DNA of 61,610 nt, filler included, from Sphacelaria rigidula (Eukaryota), in NCBI GenBank assembly GCA_964200075.2. It is 10 parts of 10 records of this genome, joined end to end, with 100 filler letters (N's around TTAATTAATTAA, not from the genome) between each part and the next. Parts side by side here need not be neighbours in the genome. Positions count along the whole stretch, not along the records: positions 24,687 to 30,757 come from CAXNAA020022432.1; 9 more parts are not named here. One strand, written 5' to 3'. Positions 5,062 through 61,610 of the stretch are shown here, in pieces. Each line of letters begins with the position of its first letter. Position 1 is the first letter of the stretch. A program made the position numbers and the translations under genes. The notes below the pieces were generated by a model. The model made no database searches, had not been told where the DNA came from, and saw nothing but the letters and a program-made list of their open reading frames with translations.

Positions 5062-6072
5062 GCTACACATAACAAAACCGAACCGCCAAATTTCATCTTC
5101 TATATATGCCAAACTTAGATATACTATTAGCATAATTCCAACATATATTATTTTCATCCATCATGTTTGTCCACATTCCGCGTCTCTGGACGCAGGTGCA
5201 ACAATTACGGGGCCTGAGAGCGCACCATTGCCCCGAAGTCCGACGCACCAGCGGCCAGTATTTCATTCTTCCGTTTCTCTGTGATCAACAGCGTCTTTTG
5301 CTTTTTCTTGAAAAATTGCGCTTTCGCCGATTTATTCATTCAGAATTTCACAATTTTTCGCGACTTCGCCACCACTGACTGCTTTACCCCTCTGTCGGAA
5401 TTTCACTTTTTCGGCCACTTCGACCACTGACAACTCCATCTCTCTCGGATCATCATACTCTTTTCTCTTGCCACTTCGGCACCACCTCACGAGTGACTTC
5501 GGCAGCCGTTTGCACGGAATTCACCCTGGAATCAGTGGCGTTTTCAGCCGTTTGACCTCCTTTCGCGCCCAGTGACGCTCCCGGCCCTTTGACTACCGTT
5601 TCGCAATATTTAATTCTCCCGTTTCTCTGTGATCACTACAGGTTTTTTTTCCGTTTCCTCTCTACGGACTTCAAAACAATTTTTTTGTTTTGTCTTCAGT
5701 CCATTTCGAGTCTCCTTCCCGGCCGTCCGCACCTCTCTCGCTGTTGGCGACACCTACCTCTCTACTTCTCCACCACTACCCAACTTGCCTCATTTCTGCA
5801 GCAGTTTGTTTTGTTGGAGCTCACCGCGTGCCGCGCCTGGCGCGAAGGTGCCCCGTACACCCTAGGGTAGTGTAAACGCACTCGAATGTCACCGCTAGTA
5901 AATATGCCTTACCTGAGATCGCTCCGGCCGAGCGCTCCAACGCAGGCCTTGATATCTTTGAAGAGATGTCGATTTCACAAATTTATTTTTTTATGCCGTC
6001 AGCAAATGGAGACCTGCGGCGGTCCAAGGCTTTGCTTTGTTATAAGCCCCCTTCTACACAAAATCCGCGTCG

Positions 6073-6172
6073 NNNNNNNNNNNNNNNNNNNNNNNNNNNN
6101 NNNNNNNNNNNNNNNNTTAATTAATTAANNNNNNNNNNNNNNNNNNNNNNNNNNNNNNNNNNNNNNNNNNNN
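6073..6172. other. Artificial contig spacer
   Basis: N44-TTAATTAATTAA-N44, stop codons in all six frames. Confidence 0.98.
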
Positions 6173-6321
6173 TGCACCTAGCCACAGCTGCTCAACTTCT
6201 GCGAACATTTGGGGAGGAAGATGGCTTCGCTCGGTCGCAAGTGTTTCGCGTCATCCCTGCAAGAGAGAAATGCCACTTCAGCCCCATTTTTCAGATGGAC
6301 TCCATTTTCCAGGATCCACTG
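6173..6321. mobile_element. End of a CAGnGGATCC-terminated TIR element running off the contig start
   Basis: Reverse complement of 12099-12244 over about 140 bp; ends in ggatccactg. Confidence 0.7.
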
Positions 6322-6370
6322 TTACTCGTCGTTCACAGAACCATGCAAACCCCACACAACTTATTCCCAG

Positions 6371-6732
6371 CTACCACCGCAACCCTTCAGCATAGAGCAC
6401 GAGTTGGGCACAGGGATAGATACACCGCAGTAGTTGGGTATGATGTGCGTATTTCCTTTTGGCGAAAACCTGGGCATATAGTATTTTTTCATGATAAGGA
6501 TCGGCGACGGAGCTGCGTGGTACGGCGGCGGACGACCGACTTGCGTATACACTCATGGACAGTACAGGCAGTTCAAAAATGCACGTTGTTCAAACCCTTT
6601 TCATGTCGCACTGCGAGCAGAGAGTACAGATAGATAGTCCTGCGCTGTCTGTACTGTATTTCGCCCGCGCCTCTTTTACGTCCTACTGTACGAAAGACGC
6701 ACACACGCACACTCTGGCTCGTACTATTTGCA
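6371..6732. repeat. Dispersed ~360-bp repeat shared with 59386-59772
   Basis: Colinear blocks cagcatag.gcacgagttg.gcacag, gcgta.ac.ctcatggacag and gtactatttgca. Confidence 0.75.
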
Positions 6733-12244: not shown

Positions 12245-12344
12245 NNNNNNNNNNNNNNNNNNNNNNNNNNNNNNNNNNNNNNNNNNNNTTAATTAATTAA
12301 NNNNNNNNNNNNNNNNNNNNNNNNNNNNNNNNNNNNNNNNNNNN
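12245..12344. other. Artificial contig spacer
   Basis: N44-TTAATTAATTAA-N44. Confidence 0.98.
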
Positions 12345-15329: not shown

Positions 15330-15675
15330 CTATTGTTTGAAGTACCATGACCGCCGGGGTGGCGCGAAAATGAAGCAAAAGCGTTGATGGTAGGAGGCGA
15401 TGACAACGATGATTATGGGTCCAGTTTTCTCTTGATCAAATACTGGACAGTACACTACGTACCGCGGCTAATATCACGTTCTTTTCTAAAAAAATGGGGT
15501 ATATAACACGACTCGGGTATGGAGGAGGGTGTCTACATGTCAAACGGCTACGAAATGAAAACGCAATGATACCGACAGCATGTGATCCGGTATTTTGTGA
15601 AAACTTACTCGTGGGGGTAAAATCATGCTTGGCACTACTACAGTGTAAAACACACACAGCCAATATATCGTTCAC

Positions 15676-17136
15676 CTCGAGGTGCCCCCCCGACGCCGCG
15701 AGGGTGCATTCGTGTCCACTCCATGGGCATCCGTTTGACCTGGACCACTGCAAGACCTCAAGGTGCCCTCGGAGCGCAGCAATGATGCAAGTTCTCTTGT
15801 TCCAGGGACAACCGTTGGCCCGACACCATTTCAAAACCTCGAGGTGCCCACCCCCAGCCGCCGCCGAACACGCTCTCGCATTCCACGGACAGCCATTAGC
15901 CCTACTCCATCTGAGGACTTCGAGGTTCCCTCCCCCAGCAGCCGCCGAACACGTACCTTCATTCCAGGGACAGCCGTTAGCCCAGCACCACTGCAAAAGT
16001 TCGAGATGCCCCCCTCCAGCCGCCGCCGCGCAAGTCTGCTCGTCCCAAGGACAGCCATTTGCGCTGCACCACTCAAGTACCCCCAGATGTCCTCCACCCG
16101 CCGCTGCCGTTGATGTCCTTTCGTCCCACGGACAGCCGTTGGCCCTGCACCACTGGATCGCCGCAAGGTGTCCCCCGGCAGCAGCCGCTTCACAAGTACG
16201 CTCGCTCCAATGACAACCTTGTGCCCGACACCATCTCAGCATCTCGAGACGATCGCTGCGCGCAGCTGCAGCCATCGTTCGCTCATCCCACCCGCAGCCG
16301 TTTGCCCTACACCACTTGAGCACTTCCAGGTGTCCGCCCCTCGCGGCGTACTCACAGGTCCTGTCGTCCCAGTTACATCCATTCGCCCTGCACCACTGGA
16401 GAACGTTGAGTTTTCCGGCCGACGCAGCGGAAAGGCACGTCACTTTACTCCAGGGGCATCGATTTTCGCGGCACCACTGCAATATGGAGAGATTGCCGGA
16501 CCTCGCCGCGGACGAACAGGTAGCGTCATCCCAAGGACAACCTTCCTCTCTCGCGTACTGAAGAGTTTCAAGGTTGCCCGCTTCTGCCGCCTTAGCGCAC
16601 ACGCTCTCATCCCAGCGGCACCCGCAATTCCGTGCCCATGCCAGCCTACGCGGACTTGCGAGCGCCGCTTCTAGCATAGTTTCTCGGGGATTGCTGTCTC
16701 GCCACGCCGATCTCCAATGTTTGGATACTCCGCCGACAAATATGAACCCTTCGGATCTAACAAAGGGTAATACATGCCTGAGTACGTCGGCATTATCCAC
16801 CAGAGGATTTCTTCGTCTCATGGGCATGGAGGGGGTAATACCACCGCCGATACACCTTGGCATGGCAGTATCAACCATGAAATATATCGCTCCATCCTGT
16901 ACTCCCATAGGAGCGTGGGTAATGTCGGGGTTCTCACACGTATTCGTGGCACATGCTGAGCTGGTCGTTATGGGGTGCGGCAAACCGTCGGGTAAAGGTC
17001 CTAGTTGGATGTTCTCGTCACTGTTATCTTGAGGTTTGGTCGTCAACCTTCGATCATAGCTGAGTACGGGCAGATGAAAGCCTGCCGAAGGCGTGTCGTG
17101 TTGAAGCCTGGCCGCCACGTAAGATCCGTCTCGCAT
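15676..17136 (-). CDS. Main exon of a GCPW-type ankyrin-repeat protein with an N-terminal F-box-like segment
   Basis: About 13 tandem 27-aa units (W.E.TC.AAA.GGHLEVL.WCRANGCP); DVLRHVLPFV...FVGGVSKHWR precedes them; donor GAG|gtgaac at 15676/15675; intron 15330-15675. The true start may be a downstream ATG, since 17136 abuts a TATA-like run. Confidence 0.9.
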
Positions 17137-18134
17137 ATATATAAACGCACACGCAATGGAAGCCCTGTTTATCTATTCCCCAAGTCAGTGGGAAATCACC
17201 CGTTGAAGTATCGACTGCGGTATGCACGTGCTAGTTGCAGTTGATGGGAACGCGTTGCATAGAGTATTGTACTGTGTTGTACTCTAATGTACTGTACTGT
17301 ACTGAACTGTATCTGTACTGACTGCAACGGTCGGGTTGAGCTGCAATCTTCTACACTGCCGAAAAAACACCGCAAAATAACCGTAGACGGCAGATATAGC
17401 ACTTCGGATATCACGTGAGAGCTTATCTTGGTCCCATCCAAGCTCTGTGGTAGACCGCCGGATCTCTCAGCCTAGCGCCTCCGTGTTGTGGTGGGGTGAG
17501 TTACAGCTGCAAAGCAAAAACATCAACCTGCAGCCGGCGGGACTGTCAGCGAAAAAACGGATCGGCGGAAAAGTGACGTTGCCCTACCCATTTATGCCCT
17601 TTGCAGGAAGATCCGGTATACTGTACTACTCACGGATTCGTTCCTTTGACGCGACGATTACAGATCGACCCCTGATAAAACAGTACAGTACATGACGCCA
17701 AGTCAGTGCGAGCGATCTTCGCTATTGAGGGACTGAAGGCAACACTCATACTATGACGGTTCTACGAATATCTCTGCTGTAACAGTGAAGCCCGTGGTAT
17801 GACATAAGAACCGGTATTGCACCATGCTTTGTGCCCTGTGGAGTGAAATGCTGCCAGTGGATATACGGCAATTCAAAATCAAGATTAGCGCGGCCAGAAC
17901 ATCCCTTCCACACTATCTGTTGTAGAGCAGGGGTAGACTCAAGGATGTGACAAAAGCAGTATCGTTATGTAATATCCTCGGGTTGACAAATGGCCGCAAA
18001 AAAAATGTGGTCGTAACCAGCAGTAACGTGTGTCCCATCTCGTCGCAAACAAGTGATGCATGGTTGAATACACTTGTATTCTGGATCGCCATGTATATAT
18101 GTTATCATCCTGTTAATCCTCAGGCCAACTCTTA

Positions 18135-18415: not shown

Positions 18416-18515
18416 NNNNNNNNNNNNNNNNNNNNNNNNNNNNNNNNNNNNNNNNNNNNTTAATTAATTAANNNNNNNNNNNNNNNNNNNNNNNNNNNNN
18501 NNNNNNNNNNNNNNN
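18416..18515. other. Artificial contig spacer
   Basis: N44-TTAATTAATTAA-N44. Confidence 0.98.
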
Positions 18516-18607
18516 CACTTCCCGAGACAGCCACAGCTTATACACTGCCCCATGGGTGTCTCACCATGGGGGTGGGGGGGGGGGGAGCTTGGAAAAGCCA
18601 ATAGAGT

Positions 18608-18701
18608 GTGCTCATGATGATGCATGTCGTGGTCAGAAGACCGTTGACCTCGCATCCCTACAAAGGCGGGACGGTGCACACCGGGTTTTCGCCGGACCAG
18701 G
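18608..18701. repeat. High-copy repeat (also about 25033-25081, 56385-56459, 61388-61480; inverted 49371-49430)
   Basis: ttgacctcgcatccctacaaag.cggg.cgg.gcac.ccgggttttcgccggacca recurs on four contigs. Confidence 0.8.
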
Positions 18702-19953
18702 CTCGCGATAAATCACCAAGCGCGAAGCGCCGTACGGGAGAGGATCGAGATCCAGTACATGAACGGCTGGGATCTTCTCCCGTAAGGGAGGAGGACGGGC
18801 CGACACGAAATGCACGCAAGTGTCCCTGTCAACAAAAGTTGGACACGCTGAGAAAATGTGCATGGCACATGAACCTCTTCGTGAAACATTTCAACCTGTT
18901 GACTGATTAAGTGTCGCACTTTAACTGACCCCCCAGGGGTCCAACCGTGGTCTCATGATGGACGTACCCAACAAAAACGAAACTGAAACACGTGAGGCAT
19001 CATGCTGTTGAAAAGTGAAGTGGGGTTGCGCAGTGGCATGGCACATGATCCTTTCCAGGAACCGTTTTGAACAAGTACGTCCTACTATGCGGTACTGTTG
19101 ATGGTTGACTTCGGGTTGTGCAGTGGAATTGAACACTCCAAAGCACGTAACTCATTAGCGGAGCGCTGAGGACCGAAAATCGGGGTCCTTGTCATGGACC
19201 TTTCACCCGCTCACATACTACACACACGTTCTCCCTCGCGTTTTAAGAGGCTGCAGTCCGTCGAAAGCGTAGGCACTTACGACGAGATTTTCGTCACGTT
19301 CTACATGTGCAAATTCCCGCACATCTGTCTTGGCTATCAAACATCAAGCTGGTCTGGCCAACCTTCCAGCATGCTTTATTTCAGTTGAAACGCTGTGAGC
19401 TTTCGGCGATAGGTACGAATGAGCGTTGGGAAGCCATGAGGATGCGTACACGAGGGACTACACAGAAGGACACGGGAATAGCCTGTTGGGTACGCAGATG
19501 ATATGCGGAAGGGGGAAAAGCACGTCCGTGTTCTACGACAGATGAAATTATTAGGATCATATCGGGATGAGTTTTTCCTTCCAAATCTGGCAAGGTGCCG
19601 AATGCCTTCATCAGGCTACTGTAATGTGCCTGCGAGCGTGGCAGCTAGATACTAAAAAAAATTATTATAGGGAGACATATGAACGAGGTGATTTCCTTGA
19701 ATCCAAAGAGGCTTAGGATAGGGTAAGGTACGAGGACGAGTAATATGAGGTGTCAATATTGCAGGTACAATTTTCACTTGGTGTCGCGCGTCGAGTTGGA
19801 AAGCCAGGCGCCACCCCCTGAAGTCCGAATGGCCACCTGCGGCCCGCATCTTTTGAGGTTAGCCATATGTACTCTTCTTTCTTCATTATTGATCCCTGTT
19901 TGTGCTTGTATCGCGTTTTGTGAGCTTTAATCTGGGTCTTTTTCTTTTTTTTC

Positions 19954-24516: not shown

Positions 24517-24586
24517 GCCCCGGTGGCTCAGTTGGTAACCTCGTAACCTTCTGATGGTTGAGTTGTGGGGTTCGATTCTCGGAGCG
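24517..24586 (+). mobile_element. tRNA-like sequence (SINE head or pseudo-tRNA), cut by the contig end
   Basis: A-box TGGCTCAGTTGG, anticodon-like arm taacc-ttCTGat-ggttg, B-box GGTTCGATTC; the D stem does not pair. Confidence 0.6.
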
Positions 24587-24686
24587 NNNNNNNNNNNNNN
24601 NNNNNNNNNNNNNNNNNNNNNNNNNNNNNNTTAATTAATTAANNNNNNNNNNNNNNNNNNNNNNNNNNNNNNNNNNNNNNNNNNNN
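24587..24686. other. Artificial contig spacer
   Basis: N44-TTAATTAATTAA-N44. Confidence 0.98.
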
Positions 24687-24853
24687 GCTAAGATTGTTCG
24701 ACCCGAAGCCTACTGATTATCTTGCATTTGGATGACAGCCTCCGATGAGTTGCTTTGTTTTCTGGCATCGCCACTTCCAGAGACAGCCACGGCTTATACG
24801 CTGCCTTATGGCTGCCTCACCATTTCAACAGTGCGTATTTCGACCATCCCAAT

Positions 24854-24937
24854 TGTGCGCAGTTGAGGTTCTCCCACGCCGCACAATATGATCTAGCTTG
24901 ACTACCATCATAGTTACCGCAGAACAAACGCAAGCGC
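24854..24937. repeat. Repeat block shared with 61508-61590
   Basis: tgtgcg.agttgaggttctcccacgccgcacaatatga...accatcat.gtta.cgca...aaacgcaagcgc. Confidence 0.8.
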
Positions 24938-25289
24938 GCGAAAAGTATCGGTAACCTGGTTGCCTAGCTCACGCAGTGAGTGGCGTGTTTTATAGCGTCA
25001 TCGCCAACAGACGCCAACCCCATCGGAGGTTCATCCCTACAAAGCCGGGACGGAGCACGCCGGGTTTTCGCCGGACCAGGCAGTCGAATGAGGTGGGCGC
25101 CTCGCGCGTCCGGAAAGCTTTCTCAATGCAGCGTGGAGGGTCGGACTCACGGAAACCCCCTGTCGACTTGGCGCAGTGCACGCGCCACCCTACTCTTATG
25201 AGCTTCCGCCCTAGTACGAGACCGATTATGTTGCCCATAGTTCAAGTCTACTGTAGTAGGGCTGCATTGCAATGTACTGACTATGGGGT

Positions 25290-25915
25290 TGTTAGATGTA
25301 CAACACATCCACTGAGCTAACAGCCAGCGCTGACTGTTAGCTCAGTGGATGTGTTGTACACTTAACAAAAGTACAACCGGGTCCGACCGTTGGTTAGACT
25401 GTTGGACTCCGGTTGTACTCGTGGGTGGTAATCCTTCTAATCAGCGCTGCCCCAAGCGGTTCGTCGGCTTACAGGCGGGAGCGCTGATTAGAAGGATTAC
25501 AACCCACGAGTACAACCGGAGTCCAACAGTCTAACCAACTGTCGGACCCGGTTGTACTTTTGTTAAGTGTACAACACATCCACTGAGCTAACAGTCAGCG
25601 CTGACTGTTAGCTCAGTGGATATGTTGTATACCTACAGTAACAAAAGTACAACCGGGGTCCGACAGTTGGTTAGACTGTGGGACTCCGGTTGTACTCGTG
25701 GGTTGTAATCCCTCTAATCAGCGCTACCCCAAGCGGTTCGTCGGCTTACAGGCGGGAGCGCTGATTAGAGGGATTACAGCCCACGGGTACAACCGGAGTC
25801 CAACAGTCTAACCAACTGTCGGACCCGGTTGTACTTTTGTCAAGTGTACAACATATCCACTGAGCTAACAGTCAGCGCTGACTGTTAGCTCAGTGGATAT
25901 GTTGTATATCTAACA
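25290..25915. mobile_element. Non-coding TG...CA element made of nested palindromes, with 5-bp TSD (repeat-internal-repeat-internal-repeat)
   Basis: GGGGT at 25285-25289 and 25916-25920; termini TGTTAGAT...ATCTAACA; palindromic repeats 25290-25367, 25561-25643, 25838-25915; hairpin internal regions 25368-25560 and 25644-25837. Confidence 0.9.
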
Positions 25916-26079
25916 GGGGTAGCGTAAACACTAGACATAATTCGTATACAGCAAGGGTGCATTCGTACAGTAGTGGCACGCAGAGCTCGCTGGCATCGCT
26001 TCGCAACAGTAGACAGCTGTGCTGCCGTGTTTCAATCACGGACGGCAACACTTTGACGGAGAATTTGCAAGGCGAAGGC

Positions 26080-26470
26080 TGTTGAGATACTGGTCGACTG
26101 CTGGACTAATCAGCTAGCGCGTTGACTGCTGAGCTAATCAGCCAGCTGGCTGACAAGCTCAGTAGTCAACCAGTATCTCAACGAAAGTCAAGCTCTGGGG
26201 TTCGAATCCCTGTGCAAGTGAAAATAGTCTTCGATGGTGAGCACCGGGTGCGGTCGAAAAGCTTGAAAACTTCGAGGTTGCCGAGAATAGTGGCGAGTCG
26301 ACTGGTTGACGTTATCAGCGTTGGTCACGGAGATGGCAACCCTTGGGTGTGAATACTCGGGGGTATACGACGGACCCACCGATCTTGACTTTTGTTAACA
26401 TACTGATTGACTGCCAAGCTAATCAGCCAGCGCTGGCTGACTTGCTCAGCAGTCAACCAGTATGTTAACA
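26080..26470. mobile_element. Related element with palindromic terminal repeats and a B-box-containing interior
   Basis: Repeats 26080-26183 and 26393-26470 (78 bp, TGTTAACA...TGTTAACA, centre CAGCGCTG); interior bounded by aaagtcaag/cttgacttt; contains GGGTTCGAATCCC; no clean TSD. Confidence 0.75.
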
Positions 26471-26693
26471 AAAAGACGCTGCGTGACCTGCCGTGGCTGC
26501 TGACTGTATCATACACCCACCCGATATTGCGGGTTGACTTGAGTGCACGGTAGTATCGCAGTACGACCCACGTCGGAGGCAGAACAAGATTCACCTCGTG
26601 ACGACAGTAGGGGGTGACGGATCATATTTCAACCCCAAGCCAGACAGCTTGTCGGGACATTCTAGCTGGCTGTCCCTGAGCACATGGTACAGG

Positions 26694-28125
26694 TCACGGC
26701 TCTATACGTACGTGTGTCGTCTTCTGTCCACTCTCGCTGGCCATCATGGTCTCGTGTCCCTCGTGCTCAAGTGGTGCACGGCATGGCCCCCAACACCCCC
26801 GGACTGAATAACTTCCTACGTCCCTTCTACTCTCACCACTGCGTTTTGCAAATGTTCGACTTGTGCACACCGCGCTGAACACGAAAATTCACCCAGGGAC
26901 TGCAACGGAGCAGGTCACGTCGAGCGACGCAACCAGGGCGCGAACGAGGGCCACCATAAGCGGCCATCGCACTGTGGACAGGCTGGTGGCAGAGTGACGG
27001 TCTGCGCCCAGCACGCCAATCAATGCCGGAAACAAGTGCGCTACAGGCGAGGCGGTGTACCGCAAGCAAGGGATGTACGGTGTGACGTCGACAAGAGAGC
27101 AGGAACTATACACCGTATACACCAACATTGGGAACATCAACCTCTAGATCATCAAGCTCCCGATTCCGAGGCGGCGCGTGTGTGGCAACAAGCTCAACTC
27201 CAAGCAGGCACCGGCCGGCGTGAAAGCAACAGTATGGTGTTCTGTGCTGGTCGAACCCGTATTCAAGGCGGGAATAGCCGATTCGGACTGCCAGAGGTGC
27301 GGCGGTATGGGCTGCTCCAGGCAGGCGCCTCTTGATACGCAGGGCAAGGATGCAGAGTATAGAACCGAGCATGCCAGGTCGGGGATCGCTAATATCAAAG
27401 GCCAGACGAGCGGGATGAGTCTTCTCAACAAAGCCATGCCCAAGAGTTCGGCGTGCAATCGGGCAGGTGGTGCGTACACGCGGCAGCAAGAAGGCGGAGG
27501 CATGCGCACACGAGCAGAGGATGTAGTGATGGAGAGGAACTGCAAGCGGACGGTTCTTAGTGAGCTGGGTGGTGAGGTGTCCAGTTCCGAACACGCCGCT
27601 TGATCAACCGCCGTACCCCAGACAAGGCGATTTGGATCCTCGTCCAACGTTCTACCGATCGGCACACCTCCGCGTCCTGATACCAAAGGATCAAGACTAA
27701 TCAATATCATGAGTAAAAATGCAGCTCCGAGGCTGCCGTGAGCAGTGGACGGGCGCGGTGTCCAGCAGGCCAGGTCGCGGATCATCAACGATCGCATCGC
27801 CATCGGCAGGAGAGTGCGGTGCAAAGGCATGTTCTGTGAAGCAATACTGAGACGAAGTTCTGGGCGAAGTATAGGATGCTTCGGGGAACGATGGGTGTGG
27901 CACACGAGACGTGCTTGGAGGAGGGAGTTTGGGCTGGAAATGGCAAGTCTAGTTCTGCGTGACGCGAGCTGATCAATACGTCTCGGGAGCGACCAACCCG
28001 GCAGTGAAAAAGCCGATACAAGCAAGGGGGGAGGGTTACCTGTTCTTGCCCAGGAGACGTGCTATAGTCCAATGCGTAGCAAAGTCTGTCTGGCCAACTC
28101 GACCACGTCCACAGCAGCACGGTTC
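26694..28125 (-). pseudogene. Nearly open intronless reading frame, function unknown
   Basis: ORFs 27144-28025, 26889-27140 and 26694-26882 share one frame, separated by single stops. Confidence 0.3.
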
Positions 28126-56280: not shown

Positions 56281-58741
56281 GGGGGGGGGGGGAAGGAGTC
56301 GAGAGTGTAAGTACACCATGTTACTTATCTACTGCTGGATGGTGGCGGTTGGGGGTGGAGGGGTGTACTCTTGATATTTCATGCCGTAGTCATATGACCA
56401 TTGACCTCATATCCCTACAAAGCCGGGGCGGAGCACGCCGAGTTCTCGCCAGATCAGGATTGGGGGAGGGGGTGTGTGTGGGGGGGGTACAAAAGTCTTC
56501 CTCATTGGTTTGGCATATATTGCCACTAAAAGAACACAAGAGGAGATCATTTTTTCCAGTCCAATACGTATATGTACCAAAAGGTAGCCACATCTACGCC
56601 AGTGGCGTACAACCTTTTCCGCATATGTACGGGGTGCTTCACTTGTTGAGTTTTCATATGGTACAGTAATTGTCCTAACTTTCCCACCCACCCCTTTTTG
56701 CGGCCCGCTTAACCCTTCTGAGTACCCGCTGATAGAAAACTAACCTGATCGTCATTCATTAAGTAAACATGATATCGATTCATCAGGCAAGCACCCTGGG
56801 CATTCTATATCGCCCATCACGGGCATTCACAAGCCATTTTTTGTTGTTTTCTTACCGAACTCTGAAACCCCTTCCCTTCCTCGGAAGGAGTCCGCGATTT
56901 CAAGGGATCAACCTTATATCTTCCCGGTTGGTATACACGCCTCGCACTGTTGGCCCCGCGGGTTGGGTCAGCACTTCTGCACCGCGTCAACTCTCGGCAA
57001 ACAAACTCAATCAACCACTTTTTTTGTTTACTCACGCATCCATGCTGGAAATCAGATACTTCAAAGAAAAAAAAAGCCTAACGCATCGGGAATCGAACCC
57101 ACATACCCTCCACCAAGTCATGCCTCTGAAAAAAACTTCGAAGTACCTATTTTGGCCATTCGGCGCCGGTTCCTGCCCGAACACGGGGACTGCCGGATGG
57201 CGTCACCTCGGAAAGATCTGCTGCACTCTCGGAGAGGATTCTAGGGGCATGGTTCTCACATTTTCAAGGGTTGGATGAAAAACGATTCATCTGATAGTTA
57301 CTTGCTTGTAGTGTGATTGATGCGTACCGTACGAATCAATCCTTGGGCCTTGTGTTCAGCTTTGAACTGCCACCCCAGGTACGCGCACCTGAGGCACGTG
57401 GAACAACACAAGAATTTGCATAGAGAATGTTTTGACCCACGGTCAACGTTTTGCAGTCTTTCGAGCAGTCCGTCCTCAGAAATCGTAGATTTGGCGATTC
57501 GACCCTGGCACGTTTCCGAACGCACAGTTTGACCTTCGGCAGGAACACTTGAATTTCTCACACGAACCAGCAAAGGTCCTTGAATTTCTCCCTCCCGACA
57601 AGAGTTACAAGAAGAAATCGGAGAAAAACGAGAGCGTTTTGGTTTGTTCGGAAAATTGCTACGATTAGTCCGACCGAACGTTAACATTGAGCGTACTAAA
57701 GATCGGGAGAGTGCGCTAGAGTCTCCCCGAAGAGTGCAGCAAGTCGTTCCAAACTTCGACAATCCTCCACGCCCCCGTTGCGGACGAAAAATTCCGCCGA
57801 TTCACTAGATTAGTCCTTTTTAGTATATAGATATCCAAAACCCGCAACAAGCAGCCGTCGGGGTTAACCCTTCTAGCGCCAAACTCCCTCAGCAGGTGAA
57901 CCATGCGTGAACCGTAACCCTTATTATTTATGGCAACCCCCACCAAGATCGCCCAGAATTGACCATGGTCAATTTGGGTTCGCGAACTTTTGTCTCGGCA
58001 CTTTTGGGCCAGTGTTAGCACCCTTCGAGCATGCCTTGGTTCTGAACGCATGAGCGTCATATTTTCTCAGCTGCACTCCTCCATCTGTACTGCTACCTAC
58101 GTCTGTGCCATACAGTACGCACAAACAAACGAGTTTCATCGGCGCCTATATACAGCGGTAAAAACAGCCAAGATGACATCACAGTCTTCTGTACGAAGTT
58201 TCTCTCTACAACAATTCAGTAGCGCAGCGCTCTTGACAGCACAAGAACGGTGTAGGCAGGTCGCAAAGGCTACGTACGCGCAAAGCACAAAACATGATTT
58301 TCGCGTACCTCACTCAAGGGTTCAAGTGGTTACTACAATAAATTTTACATGAAATTCCCCTTGACCGCTGAGTGAGTCATAGTGAATCGTTTGCAGAGGA
58401 GCATCACTGATAATTCGAACAATTTAGAACTGTCGGAATGGTCACTTCACCCCCCCCAGGTCCCATCTTAGGGAGACCGAGAAAACAAAAAAAGAGTGAG
58501 GAAGGCAGCTTGCCTGTCCACGAAGGGCTTTTTTGCGTTATAAGGAGGAAACACAGAACGGACTCTGTCAGAAGAGCGGTGTTTTTTTTGGCACTGGACG
58601 CAGTCGTGAACAGGTCTGGAAATCTGGACCGGCGTGGCTGGAACACGTTACACCTACATAACCGAGCCCAAGCACATCATACATGGCGCTAGCTCTTGCT
58701 CAGCTACACGGCAATCCGTTCCGGTATTGGAAAAGAGGCGG

Positions 58742-61128: not shown

Positions 61129-61610
61129 AACACGCCATACTCATTCAATCACTAGCTTCGGCTCAAGCTGCTGACTGTCTATCCTGGGACAGTGAGATCA
61201 GAAGTTGATGTGACCGTGTTCCTCATGACCAGGCTTTGTGATAGCTGTGTACCACAGCAAGGGTAATTGCGCCGTTGGTTCACGCTGCCCTTCATGGCGA
61301 ACAGCCCGAAAAACATCTTGGCGAATTTGATAAATAAACGCCGCAGCCTCGAACTGTTCTTCCTTCGGTGAGTGTGTGTGGGGGGGTGTACTCATGATCA
61401 TGCATACCACAGGCATCATATCATTGACCTCGCATCCCCACGAAGCCGGGACGGAGCACGCCGGGTTTTCGCCGGACCACGCTCGCACTCAATCACCGTT
61501 GTGCGTTGTGCGGAGTTGAGGTTCTCCCACGCCGCACAATATGACATATCTCGACCACCATCATGGTTAACGCAAAAAAAACGCAAGCGCTAAAACAAAA
61601 ACGGAAACCT

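Follow-up and report, generated by a model that had tools for sequence, protein, structure and literature searches.

A sequence of 626 bp in Sphacelaria rigidula raises the question of whether it moves, or has moved, as an LTR retroelement or as a DNA transposon with terminal inverted repeats (TIRs), because its palindromic repeats can be read as either kind of terminus. The sequence lies in a stretch of 61,610 nucleotides, filler included, which was analysed as a whole and is called the window below. In the following, its anatomy is described first, then the possible modes of movement are weighed, and finally the element is compared with known systems.

Anatomy of the 626-bp element

Positions 25290-25915 are composed of P1(78)-interior(193)-P2(83)-interior(194)-P3(78), with an exact GGGGT on either flank (Table 1). 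All three P units are of the form TGT...ACA and are centred on CAGCGCTG; both interiors start with AAAGT and end with ACTTT. The initial annotation had reported these coordinates, the three palindromes, the hairpin interiors and the GGGGT flanks, and all of them were found again. Its description of the element as non-coding also holds, the longest ORF inside being 68 aa.

Table 1. Positions of the features of the element and of its downstream relative in the window.
Feature	Position	Strand	Description
Left GGGGT	25285..25289	.	putative target-site duplication (TSD) copy; outside the 277-bp repeat unit
P1	25290..25367	.	78-bp palindrome, TGTTAGAT...CTTAACA, centre CAGC/GCTG; 72/78 self-complementary
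P1, left half	within 25290..25367	.	left terminus of the element
Interior 1	25368..25560	+	193-bp hairpin, from inverted-repeat search and DNA fold
Interior 1, arms and loop	25368-25451, 25477-25560 (arms); 25452-25476 (loop)		asymmetric 25-nt loop
P2	25561..25643	.	83-bp palindrome common to both units; 5-bp insertion near right end
Interior 2	25644..25837	+	194-bp hairpin, loop 25729-25753, oriented like loop 1
P3	25838..25915	.	78-bp palindrome; right half (...ATCTAACA) is the right terminus of the element
Right GGGGT	25916..25920	.	putative TSD copy
Sibling	26080..26471	+	diverged sibling of the same plan, 165 bp downstream of the element
P'a	26080-26183		includes a 28-bp tandem duplication
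Sibling interior	26184-26391		non-palindromic, AAAGT at start and ACTTT at end
P'b	26392-26471		TGTTAAC...GTTAACA, centre CAGCGCTG

Self-complementarity of the P units is imperfect, with 74/88 positions in P2, which carries the 5-bp insertion, and 70/78 in P3. The longest inverted repeats have arms of 159 nt (96%), spanning the arms of interior 1 plus P halves, and of 162 nt (93%). Within each arm of interior 1 lies a sub-palindrome of about 50 bp, and the right half of P1 is identical to the reverse complement of the left half of P2 at 39/39 positions. The DNA fold of the element has an energy of -337.6 kcal/mol, compared with -86.9 +/- 5.0 kcal/mol for shuffles (z = -50).

TRF describes the same sequence as a tandem repeat of period 277 with 2.3 copies, 93% matches and a score of 1087. 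The left GGGGT is not part of this 277-bp unit, since P2 and P3 are preceded by ACTTT. The interiors are more alike as direct copies (185/194) than as inverted ones (175/199), and only the two 25-nt loops, which are direct to each other, give the element a strand polarity. As the loops share their orientation, the doubling is a direct tandem. Between the two units, the interiors are 95.4% alike and the P units, compared as direct repeats, 88-92%; because of these differences the dimer is not one copy that the assembler wrote twice. On the basis of diagnostic bases, the first and last repeats had been called inverted rather than direct copies. For P1 and P3 this stands (inverted 73/78, direct 69/78), whereas P2 and P3 are more alike in direct orientation (76/83, against 72/83 inverted). 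A palindrome scan of the whole window found only P1, P2, P3 and P'b, and a sequence search within the window detected neither the element nor its right flank nor the sibling a second time.

Transposase, integrase or reverse transcription

With moderate confidence, we interpret the element as a non-autonomous foldback or miniature inverted-repeat transposon of the cut-and-paste type, whose ends would serve an integrase-like DDE transposase resembling Ginger2/TDD or an undescribed relative of it. It is a known kind of transposon in an unusual build and no new class. The class of enzyme, how the dimer arose, and which of monomer and dimer was inserted are our inferences. Each P would consist of two transposon ends back to back with their tips pointing outward, and the basic unit would be P-interior-P of about 349 bp, to which the present copy would have added a second interior and P. 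A palindrome such as P counts as a direct repeat and equally as an inverted one, so that unequal exchange could make a dimer with a shared P: such exchange, or slippage, between P modules would lead to P-I-P-I-P, in which the middle P is common to both units. This route to shared-terminal tandems would normally be open only to LTR elements; the legend of Fig. 1 in PMC5932611 attributes such tandems to ectopic recombination between terminal direct repeats. At integration, the outermost half-palindromes, beginning with TGTTAGAT and ending with ATCTAACA, would have been used, and GGGGT would have been duplicated.

The termini are consistent with this interpretation. The outer tips are TGTTA...TAACA, and TGTTA at both outer ends agrees with the pattern TGTNR. 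For Ginger1 and Ginger2, Bao et al. 2010 (PMC2836005) give TGTNR termini and TIRs of 40-270 or 50-180 bp, and for TDD-4/-5 a TSD of 5 bp; the TSD of Ginger2 is stated as "4 or 5 bp" by Kojima 2023 (PMC10045372). In our element the inverted repeats comprise 39 nt at the tips, where the outer half-palindromes match at 36/39 positions, and reach 162 nt at 93%, which is within the range of Ginger-type TIRs. Table 1 of PMC3845634 lists MITEs derived from Ginger2 whose ends read TGTTA.... The integrase-type signature recognised in the initial annotation is present, with TGT...ACA ends and one exact 5-bp TSD; according to PMC2836005 and PMC10045372, this combination is found with LTR integrases as well as with Ginger-type transposases. 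As a target, GGGGT is rich in GC, against the AT-rich RTATAY/TATA preference of metazoan Ginger2 (RTATAY in PMC2836005).

A Pfam scan of 95 ORFs of the window (9 + 86) detected no integrase, transposase or reverse transcriptase. The 86 ORFs were drawn from 94 of at least 110 aa; the eight left out overlap the ankyrin gene, and two of these eight are among the other nine scanned, leaving six outside the Pfam scan. The relatives of the ankyrin ORF in the window are only generic ankyrin proteins. For the long ORF nearest to the element (27147-28061, minus strand), neither a Pfam family nor a homologue was found.

Alternatively, the element could be a TRIM-like non-autonomous LTR retroelement, with P as a very short LTR, copied through RNA, inserted by a Copia-type integrase and brought into tandem by recombination between LTRs; we consider this unlikely. 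The P units do double as direct repeats that are 88-92% alike, and their greater depth in reads, compared with the interiors, is as expected of solo LTRs. The TG...CA ends with a 5-bp TSD are like those of the Copia families in the curated Ectocarpus table, in which the Copia TSDs are all 5 bp and those of Gypsy, where stated, all 4 bp, and this curated library lists no autonomous Ginger (PMC12477816). Furthermore, the succession of repeat, interior, repeat, interior and repeat had been noted to match tandem TRIMs, and it is indeed the LTR-ID-LTR-ID-LTR layout published for Cassandra arrays (PMC7215508). A primer-binding site (PBS) and a polypurine tract, which define TRIMs, are absent on both strands. 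The 25 nt that follow P1 and those that follow P2 contain no TGG, and the best match to TGGTATCAGAGC, the PBS motif of Cassandra taken from PMC7215508, has 4 mismatches; the 25 nt before P2 and P3 contain 10/25 purines, and purine runs in the element reach a length of 7 at most. These results bear out the absence of both signals that the initial annotation had stated and argue against the retroelement half of its double reading. In addition, the interior forms a hairpin whose only strand polarity lies in the 25-nt loop, P with its 78 bp is shorter than the LTRs of the Ectocarpus table (187-1130 bp; PMC12477816), and P1 and P3 pair better inverted than direct. The P units are more diverged than the interiors, which is the opposite of young LTR pairs.

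It is quite unlikely that these palindromic elements exploit the integrase of a Copia-type retrotransposon, as DNA-level or self-primed parasites, and that the genome lacks a Ginger-type transposase. In the Ectocarpus library, as tabulated in PMC12477816, every 5-bp TSD except that of DNA5-N1 belongs to Copia, and a Copia integrase is therefore favoured if the host is similar. Priming by fold-back, which had been proposed as a substitute for a tRNA, finds no support here. If the elements were such parasites, a family without PBS, polypurine tract and polarity would still be inserted by the enzyme of LTR elements, and each palindromic end module would stand in for the two "LTR ends" simultaneously; a Pol III promoter of the tRNA type, for a hairpin transcript, might reside in these modules as well.

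Boundaries, dispersed copies and a diverged sibling

A very unlikely alternative to the preferred interpretation is that the sequence is not mobile, a palindromic repeat having been duplicated locally in tandem (a satellite seed) with GGGGT on both sides by chance, or that the dimer is a misjoin of two genomic copies. Of 53,277 window positions, 70 (0.13%) show an exact 5-mer match between the two flanks of a 626-bp span; if a slack of +/-2 bases per end is allowed, the value rises to 2.3% of positions. Only one TSD was seen, and inspection of the sibling's flanks revealed no recognisable one. None of the contigs spans the whole element, a missing bridge that is evidence neither way, and palindromes, which break short-read graphs, probably invite mis-joins. 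Against this explanation, the GGGGT match lies on either side directly at the base where the inverted repeat ends, and the two units differ from each other by 4.6%. In the unique right flank, contigs begin at 25887 in sequencing run X1 and at 25886 in run X5, that is 29-30 bases inside P3. By k-mer reasoning such contigs would begin about k-1 bases inside, and 25915 thus appears to be the last base of the sequence shared by the family. Runs of two studies contain the right junction, although the assembly was possibly built from one of these studies. On the left the boundary is less sharp, since a repeat also occupies the flank there (25096-25284) and stops 5 bases before the element; farther to the left, at 24702-25081, a very high-copy repeat is located.

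The reads also demonstrate that the element belongs to a multi-copy, dispersed family with differing flanks, which confirms the family membership that had been expected. In runs X1, X3 and X5, the depth of the unique flank was 41.6, 82.7 and 9.2, whereas the bins of P2 and P3 reached about 3800, 5600-6500 and 176-217, respectively; the values for interior bins were between 46 and 2270 across the three runs, the P bins being deeper. All these figures are summed contig depths and not copy numbers. Variant letters occur in several contigs, for example in 8-12 contigs at position 25680. Five bases are missing at 25634 in 4 (X1), 5 (X3), 2 (X5) and 1 (X6) of the family contigs, and others have differing small deletions at 25630-25637. 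Run X6 (79 million letters; RNA or low-coverage DNA) contains family contigs but no contig from the unique flank, and no RNA data set is listed as containing the locus. When collections of metagenome, genome and viral contigs were scanned for exact patterns of the P core, the loop and the P'b core, there were 0 matches in each.

The sibling immediately downstream has the termini TGTTG, with which it starts, and TGTTA. Its core aligns with P over 33 nt at 84.8% (E = 2e-4). For nine comparisons of the P1R, P2L and P3L arms with the sibling, z was between 4.1 and 5.6 and at most 1 of 2000 shuffles was as good; for all 15 arm comparisons, z was between 2.8 and 5.6, with at most 14 of 2000. According to read depth the sibling is multi-copy as well, and its other copies are about 82-84% alike. 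Because it shares the TGTT ends, the CAGCGCTG centre and the AAAGT/ACTTT junctions with the element, the plan is conserved across sub-families.

Most improbable is that the family's main activity is that of an RNA polymerase III unit making a long hairpin RNA, as a source of small RNAs or as a SINE-like retroposon. In such a unit, each P arm would contain a tRNA-type box A, followed 42 bases on by a box-B-like motif, and a T4 terminator would lie at the far end of the interior. The consensus of box A is TRGCNNAGTGG. The motif TAGCTCAGTGG fits it and occurs 7 times in the window, compared with 0.75 expected; 6 of the 7 are in P arms, where they represent one sequence copied six times. A perfect GGTTCGAATCC is found in the sibling interior, 42 bases after a degenerate box A of the sibling, and matches of this type number 4 in the window (0.38 expected). 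In the main element, GGGTCCGAC follows box A after 41-47 bases (25379 after 25338; 25656 after 25609), and T4 runs occur only at 25558 and 25835, which are the junctions from interior to P. Pol III promoters are also carried by the repeats of Cassandra TRIMs (PMC7215508). The box motifs were, however, searched post hoc. Rfam gave no tRNA match at E up to 10; its 33 matches at this threshold, to miRNA hairpins, were all below gathering, the best being mir-3012 with 38.8 bits against 90. ARAGORN predicted no tRNA by default, and the cloverleaves that it drew at 85% thresholds did not surpass one from the unique flank. The element lacks a tail of A-rich or LINE-like sequence, and a fixed 5-bp TSD with TGT/ACA ends is unlike the products of LINE-driven SINEs.

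Three further candidates were rejected: a rolling-hairpin (parvovirus-like) concatemer, since the loops are direct and not alternating; a Helitron, since TC...CTRR ends are missing and a TSD is present; and the abutted-end junction of an IS3-like circle, since the TGT/ACA tips point outward from P, away from its centre.

Significance and comparison with known systems

If a census agrees with the interpretation as a DNA transposon, the palindromic terminus blurs the distinction between LTR and TIR in practice: one module would offer an inverted end to the transposase and a direct repeat to unequal exchange, and a TIR-type element could then build shared-terminal tandem arrays and possibly "solo" modules. 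Given the same agreement, a miniature element with an integrase signature would be added to an algal lineage in which the sole comparable curated entry is question-marked and has no known autonomous partner. This raises the question of whether the mover is a Ginger-like transposase or a Copia integrase. For annotation, there is a risk that different tools mis-call such elements as LTR/TRIM, MITE, tandem repeat or miRNA hairpin.

The algal entry, DNA5-N1_Ec32 of Ectocarpus, is the closest description in print, the comparison being one of descriptions and not of sequences. According to the supplementary table of PMC12477816, it is classed as "DDE ?; possible Ginger?" and has 103 copies. It has in common with our element that it is non-autonomous and has a 5-bp TSD, and its TGTTG-CAACA ends recall the sibling, which begins in the same way. 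It differs in its length of 502 bp and its imperfect TIR of 9 bp, compared with 349 or 626 bp, inverted repeats of 39-162 bp and TGTTA-TAACA ends here. With this listing of similar ends and TSD, the statement that the element is not a described family cannot be upheld as it was made. The main text of the Ectocarpus TE paper contains no mention of MITE, palindromes, foldback, hairpin or Ginger, and a literature search for Ginger in stramenopiles yielded nothing relevant. Three strings from the window did not occur in a full-text literature search, and a search with three window strings, in DNA spelling, gave 0 occurrences in the searchable supplementary files to the miRNA paper on Ectocarpus, one file excepted.

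Ginger2/TDD transposons and their MITEs (Ginger2_NA of Bombyx and Rhodnius) have in common with the element TGTNR termini and TIRs whose length ranges from tens of bp to more than 100 bp; their TSD measures 4 or 5 bp (5 bp in TDD-4/-5), and the single putative TSD here 5 bp. The miniature forms of Ginger2 listed in PMC3845634 are 531-651 bp long and have TGTTA... ends. In contrast to these, the element has a GC-rich target, a full 78-bp palindrome at each terminus and a hairpin interior that is tandemly doubled. TRIMs such as Cassandra resemble the element in that their terminal direct repeats are short, their interior is short and non-coding, and they form arrays in which repeats are shared; they possess a PBS (TGGTATCAGAGC in Cassandra, PMC7215508), a polypurine tract and strand polarity, and tests for these three showed that the element lacks them.

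The single P of 78 bp is like the human Made1 in that it consists essentially of two inverted repeats and nothing else, and its RNA would fold to a stable hairpin. Made1 is a member of mariner, which makes TA duplications. As described in PMC1784062, Made1 (80 bp) is a near-perfect palindromic MITE of two 37-bp TIRs and the source of mir-548; it stands alone, whereas P brackets interiors. The foldback elements, represented by FB of Drosophila, show a likeness in that a long inverted repeat, containing sub-repeats and closed by a short loop, takes up nearly their full length. FB is not known to have TGT/ACA termini with a TSD of 5 bp. Unlike in FB, the doubling observed here is a direct tandem of the hairpin unit.

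Architecture of the element and its sibling

The stretch 25285-25920, as read from the sequence, consists of GGGGT, the palindromic module P1, interior 1, P2, interior 2, P3 and a second GGGGT. Detection of tandem repeats by TRF (period 277 bp, 2.3 copies, 93% matches, score 1087) and the fold of these 636 bases as single-stranded DNA (-337.6 kcal/mol versus -86.9 +/- 5.0 for shuffled sequences, z = -50) bear out, together with the sequence itself, the structure proposed in the initial annotation: its coordinates, three palindromes, hairpin interiors, GGGGT flanks and non-coding nature (longest ORF 68 aa). The G+C content is 50%. An exact match of flanking 5-mers at the spacing of this target-site duplication (TSD) was found for 70 of 53,277 window positions (0.13%); the chance rises to 2.3% if a two-base slide is allowed at each end.

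Features of the main element and of the sibling
Feature	Coordinates	Length	Description
TSD	25285-25289; 25916-25920	5 bp	GGGGT
P1	25290-25367	78 bp	TGT start, ACA end, centre CAGC|GCTG; self-complementary 72/78
Interior 1		193 bp	hairpin, AAAGT...ACTTT; 25-nt loop 25452-25476; inverted repeat I1, 159-nt arms, 96%
P2	25561-25643	83 bp	TGT start, ACA end, centre CAGC|GCTG; self-complementary 74/88
Interior 2		194 bp	hairpin, AAAGT...ACTTT; 25-nt loop 25729-25753; inverted repeat I4, 73-nt arms, 95%
P3	25838-25915	78 bp	TGT start, ACA end, centre CAGC|GCTG; self-complementary 70/78
Sibling	26080-26471		P'a palindrome (internal 28-bp duplication), AAAGT, 208-bp interior, ACTTT, P'b
P'b		80 bp	palindrome, TGTTAAC...GTTAACA, centre CAGCGCTG

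Let h denote one half of P (39 nt, running inwards from the tip), a one arm of an interior (84 nt) and l its loop; the order of parts is then h h' a l a' h h' a l a' h h'. Because it is self-complementary throughout except for the loops, and both loops point the same way, the doubling is a direct and not an inverted tandem of the hairpin unit. The left half of P2, when reverse-complemented, equals the right half of P1 at 39 of 39 positions. It had been claimed that diagnostic bases make the first and last modules inverted copies; this holds for the outermost 8 bases (TGTTAGAT / ATCTAACA) and for P1 against P3 (73/78 inverted, 69/78 direct), but P2 and P3 (76/83 direct, 72/83 inverted) as well as the two interiors (95.4%) agree better as direct copies. 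A search of the whole window for the terminal 15-mer, allowing up to 3 mismatches, hit five of the six half-ends of P and nothing else.

A diverged sibling of the same plan lies 165 bp downstream. Its ends are TGTT, its interior forms no hairpin, and no TSD is recognisable in its flanks. The sibling's core matches P over 33 nt (84.8%, E = 2e-4). Nine comparisons of its arms with the right arm of P1 and the left arms of P2 and P3 gave z = 4.1-5.6, equalled by at most 1 of 2000 shuffles; for all 15 arm comparisons, the values were z = 2.8-5.6 and at most 14 of 2000. According to read depth the sibling is multi-copy, other copies being about 82-84% alike.

Copy number, boundaries and neighbouring repeats

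The window contains no further copy of the main element. In five read runs, half or more of the words sampled from 24700-26700 are present, and the contigs of four runs were compared with the window. The depth of the unique flank is 41.6 (run X1), 82.7 (X3) and 9.2 (X5); summed contig depth, which does not equal copy number, is about 3800 (X1), 5600-6500 (X3) and 176-217 (X5) for the bins of P2 and P3, and 46 to 2270 for interior bins. Letters unlike those of the window occur in several distinct contigs (e.g. 8 and 12 contigs at 25680), and in some contigs P2 is without its 5 additional bases. This is clearly a multi-copy family, in which P outnumbers the interior. Contigs leading out of the unique right flank begin at 25887 (X1) and 25886 (X5), 29-30 bases inside P3, as a k=31 graph would give; the shared sequence thus appears to end at 25915. 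The dimer form is putative, being that of the assembly, and no contig of the four runs bridges the element.

Directly to the left lies a medium-copy repeat (25096-25284; bins at 54-181x unique depth in X1). A 189-base contig of run X6 is identical to this repeat (0 differences) and breaks off 5 bases short of the element, exactly before GGGGT; the element may have inserted at the edge of this other repeat. Farther left, 24687-25081 is a very high-copy repeat, whose summed contig depth is in the millions versus about 40-80 for unique sequence; partial copies are at 18516-18702, 56411-56458 and 61433-61590, its joints reach back about 380 bases, which means that it is tandem elsewhere, and G-rich loose ends lie behind 25081. 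By description only, it recalls RTEX-N1 of Ectocarpus, which is abundant, C-rich, sometimes tandem and LINE-dependent (PMC12477816). Paired 44-N runs (6073-6172, 12245-12344, 18416-18515, 24587-24686 and on, every 6171 bases) look like inserted masks, not biology; the 12 letters between two of them (24631-24642) are TTAATTAATTAA. Just ahead of this masked stretch, 24560-24586 contains the box-B/T-loop-like GGGGTTCGATTCTC (10/11 by eye).

Integrase-type signature and alternative readings

This is a genuine feature that resembles a mobile element and is unusual in its all-palindromic architecture. Its TGTTA ends, 39-162-bp inverted repeats and 5-bp duplication constitute the signature of a miniature integrase-like DDE transposon. 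Since P is palindromic, it is also a direct repeat. Tandems with a common terminal repeat are described as arising by ectopic exchange between terminal direct repeats (PMC5932611); such an exchange between P modules would give a dimer with a common middle P, a route thereby opened to a TIR-type element (one with terminal inverted repeats). We see about an even chance that the element is such a transposon, made tandem by P acting as a direct repeat. Of the initial reading as both LTR and TIR element, the integrase half stands on one TSD and a read-supported right boundary; the retroelement half fails the tests described next.

The LTR-like traits are repeats that are direct as well as inverted, TG...CA ends and the 5-bp TSD. 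In a retro or hijack reading, a Copia integrase would be the enzyme. A comparison with Ectocarpus bears on this, provided that the host is a related alga: in the curated table, TSDs are 4 bp in all Gypsy families stating one and 5 bp in all Copia families, and autonomous Ginger is absent (PMC12477816). As no Ginger transposase is known there, a Copia integrase stays a live candidate, which leaves the retro or hijack reading a rather low probability. TGG is absent within 25 nt after P, the best match to the Cassandra primer-binding motif (PMC7215508) has 4 mismatches, and the 25 nt before P contain 10 purines (longest purine run 7). Primer-binding site and polypurine tract, both already noted as lacking, were thus absent when tested; without these two defining features the element was not filed as a TRIM.

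TAGCTCAGTGG, which fits the tRNA box A consensus, is present in each P arm (25338-25348, 25609-25619, 25886-25896 and mirror sites). Box A matches number 7 in the window versus 0.75 expected, 6 of them in P arms and hence one sequence copied. The sibling's interior contains a perfect GGTTCGAATCC (box B, 26199-26209; 4 matches in the window versus 0.38 expected), 42 bases past a degenerate box A. In the main element, GGGTCCGAC follows 41-47 bases past box A, and T4 runs occur only at 25558 and 25835, the interior-to-P junctions. On sequence grounds, this putative order of box A, box-B-like motif and T4 is that of a Pol III type-2 unit, and the spacing is near that found in tRNA genes. A Pol III promoter inside a terminal repeat is already known from Cassandra (PMC7215508); still, the motifs were noticed after the fact, and transcription of the hairpin interior as primary function seems very unlikely. 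The layout is compatible with the transposon readings. A tRNA, SINE, miRNA or other Rfam family was ruled out: ARAGORN at default settings found no tRNA in the element, its relaxed calls were no better than one in unique flank, and Rfam gave sub-threshold hairpin matches only, none of them to tRNA, at E up to 10.

Pfam detected no integrase, transposase or reverse transcriptase among 95 window ORFs (9 in a first scan plus 86 of the 94 ORFs of at least 110 aa; the 8 omitted from the latter overlap an ankyrin gene, 2 being within the first scan and 6 unscanned). The uninterrupted 578-aa ORF at 15439-17172 (-) has ankyrin repeats (Ank_4, E = 1.8e-25) and many relatives, which are generic ankyrin proteins and say nothing about taxon.

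Comparison with known families

The termini of Ginger transposons are described as TGTNR, resembling those of Gypsy LTRs; TIRs span 40-270 bp in Ginger1, with 4-bp duplications (CCGG or CCGT), and 50-180 bp in Ginger2, also with 4-bp duplications, whereas those of TDD-4/-5 are 5 bp (PMC2836005). Kojima 2023 gives TSD lengths of 4 bp in Ginger1, 4 or 5 in Ginger2, 3-6 in LTR elements and 6 in Polinton (PMC10045372). GingerRoot/IS3EU produce 6-bp duplications, mostly with TA..TA ends. Ginger2-derived MITEs with TGTTA... ends are in print (Table 1 of PMC3845634). P alone resembles Made1, an 80-bp MITE of just two 37-bp inverted repeats (PMC1784062). The element had been called not a described family, which is not established: the non-autonomous Ectocarpus family DNA5-N1_Ec32 (103 copies; PMC12477816), set beside it by table description and not by sequence, agrees in end signature (TGTTG-CAACA) and TSD, but not in the lengths stated for the element and its TIRs. 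Annotated "possible Ginger?", it is the closest description in print.
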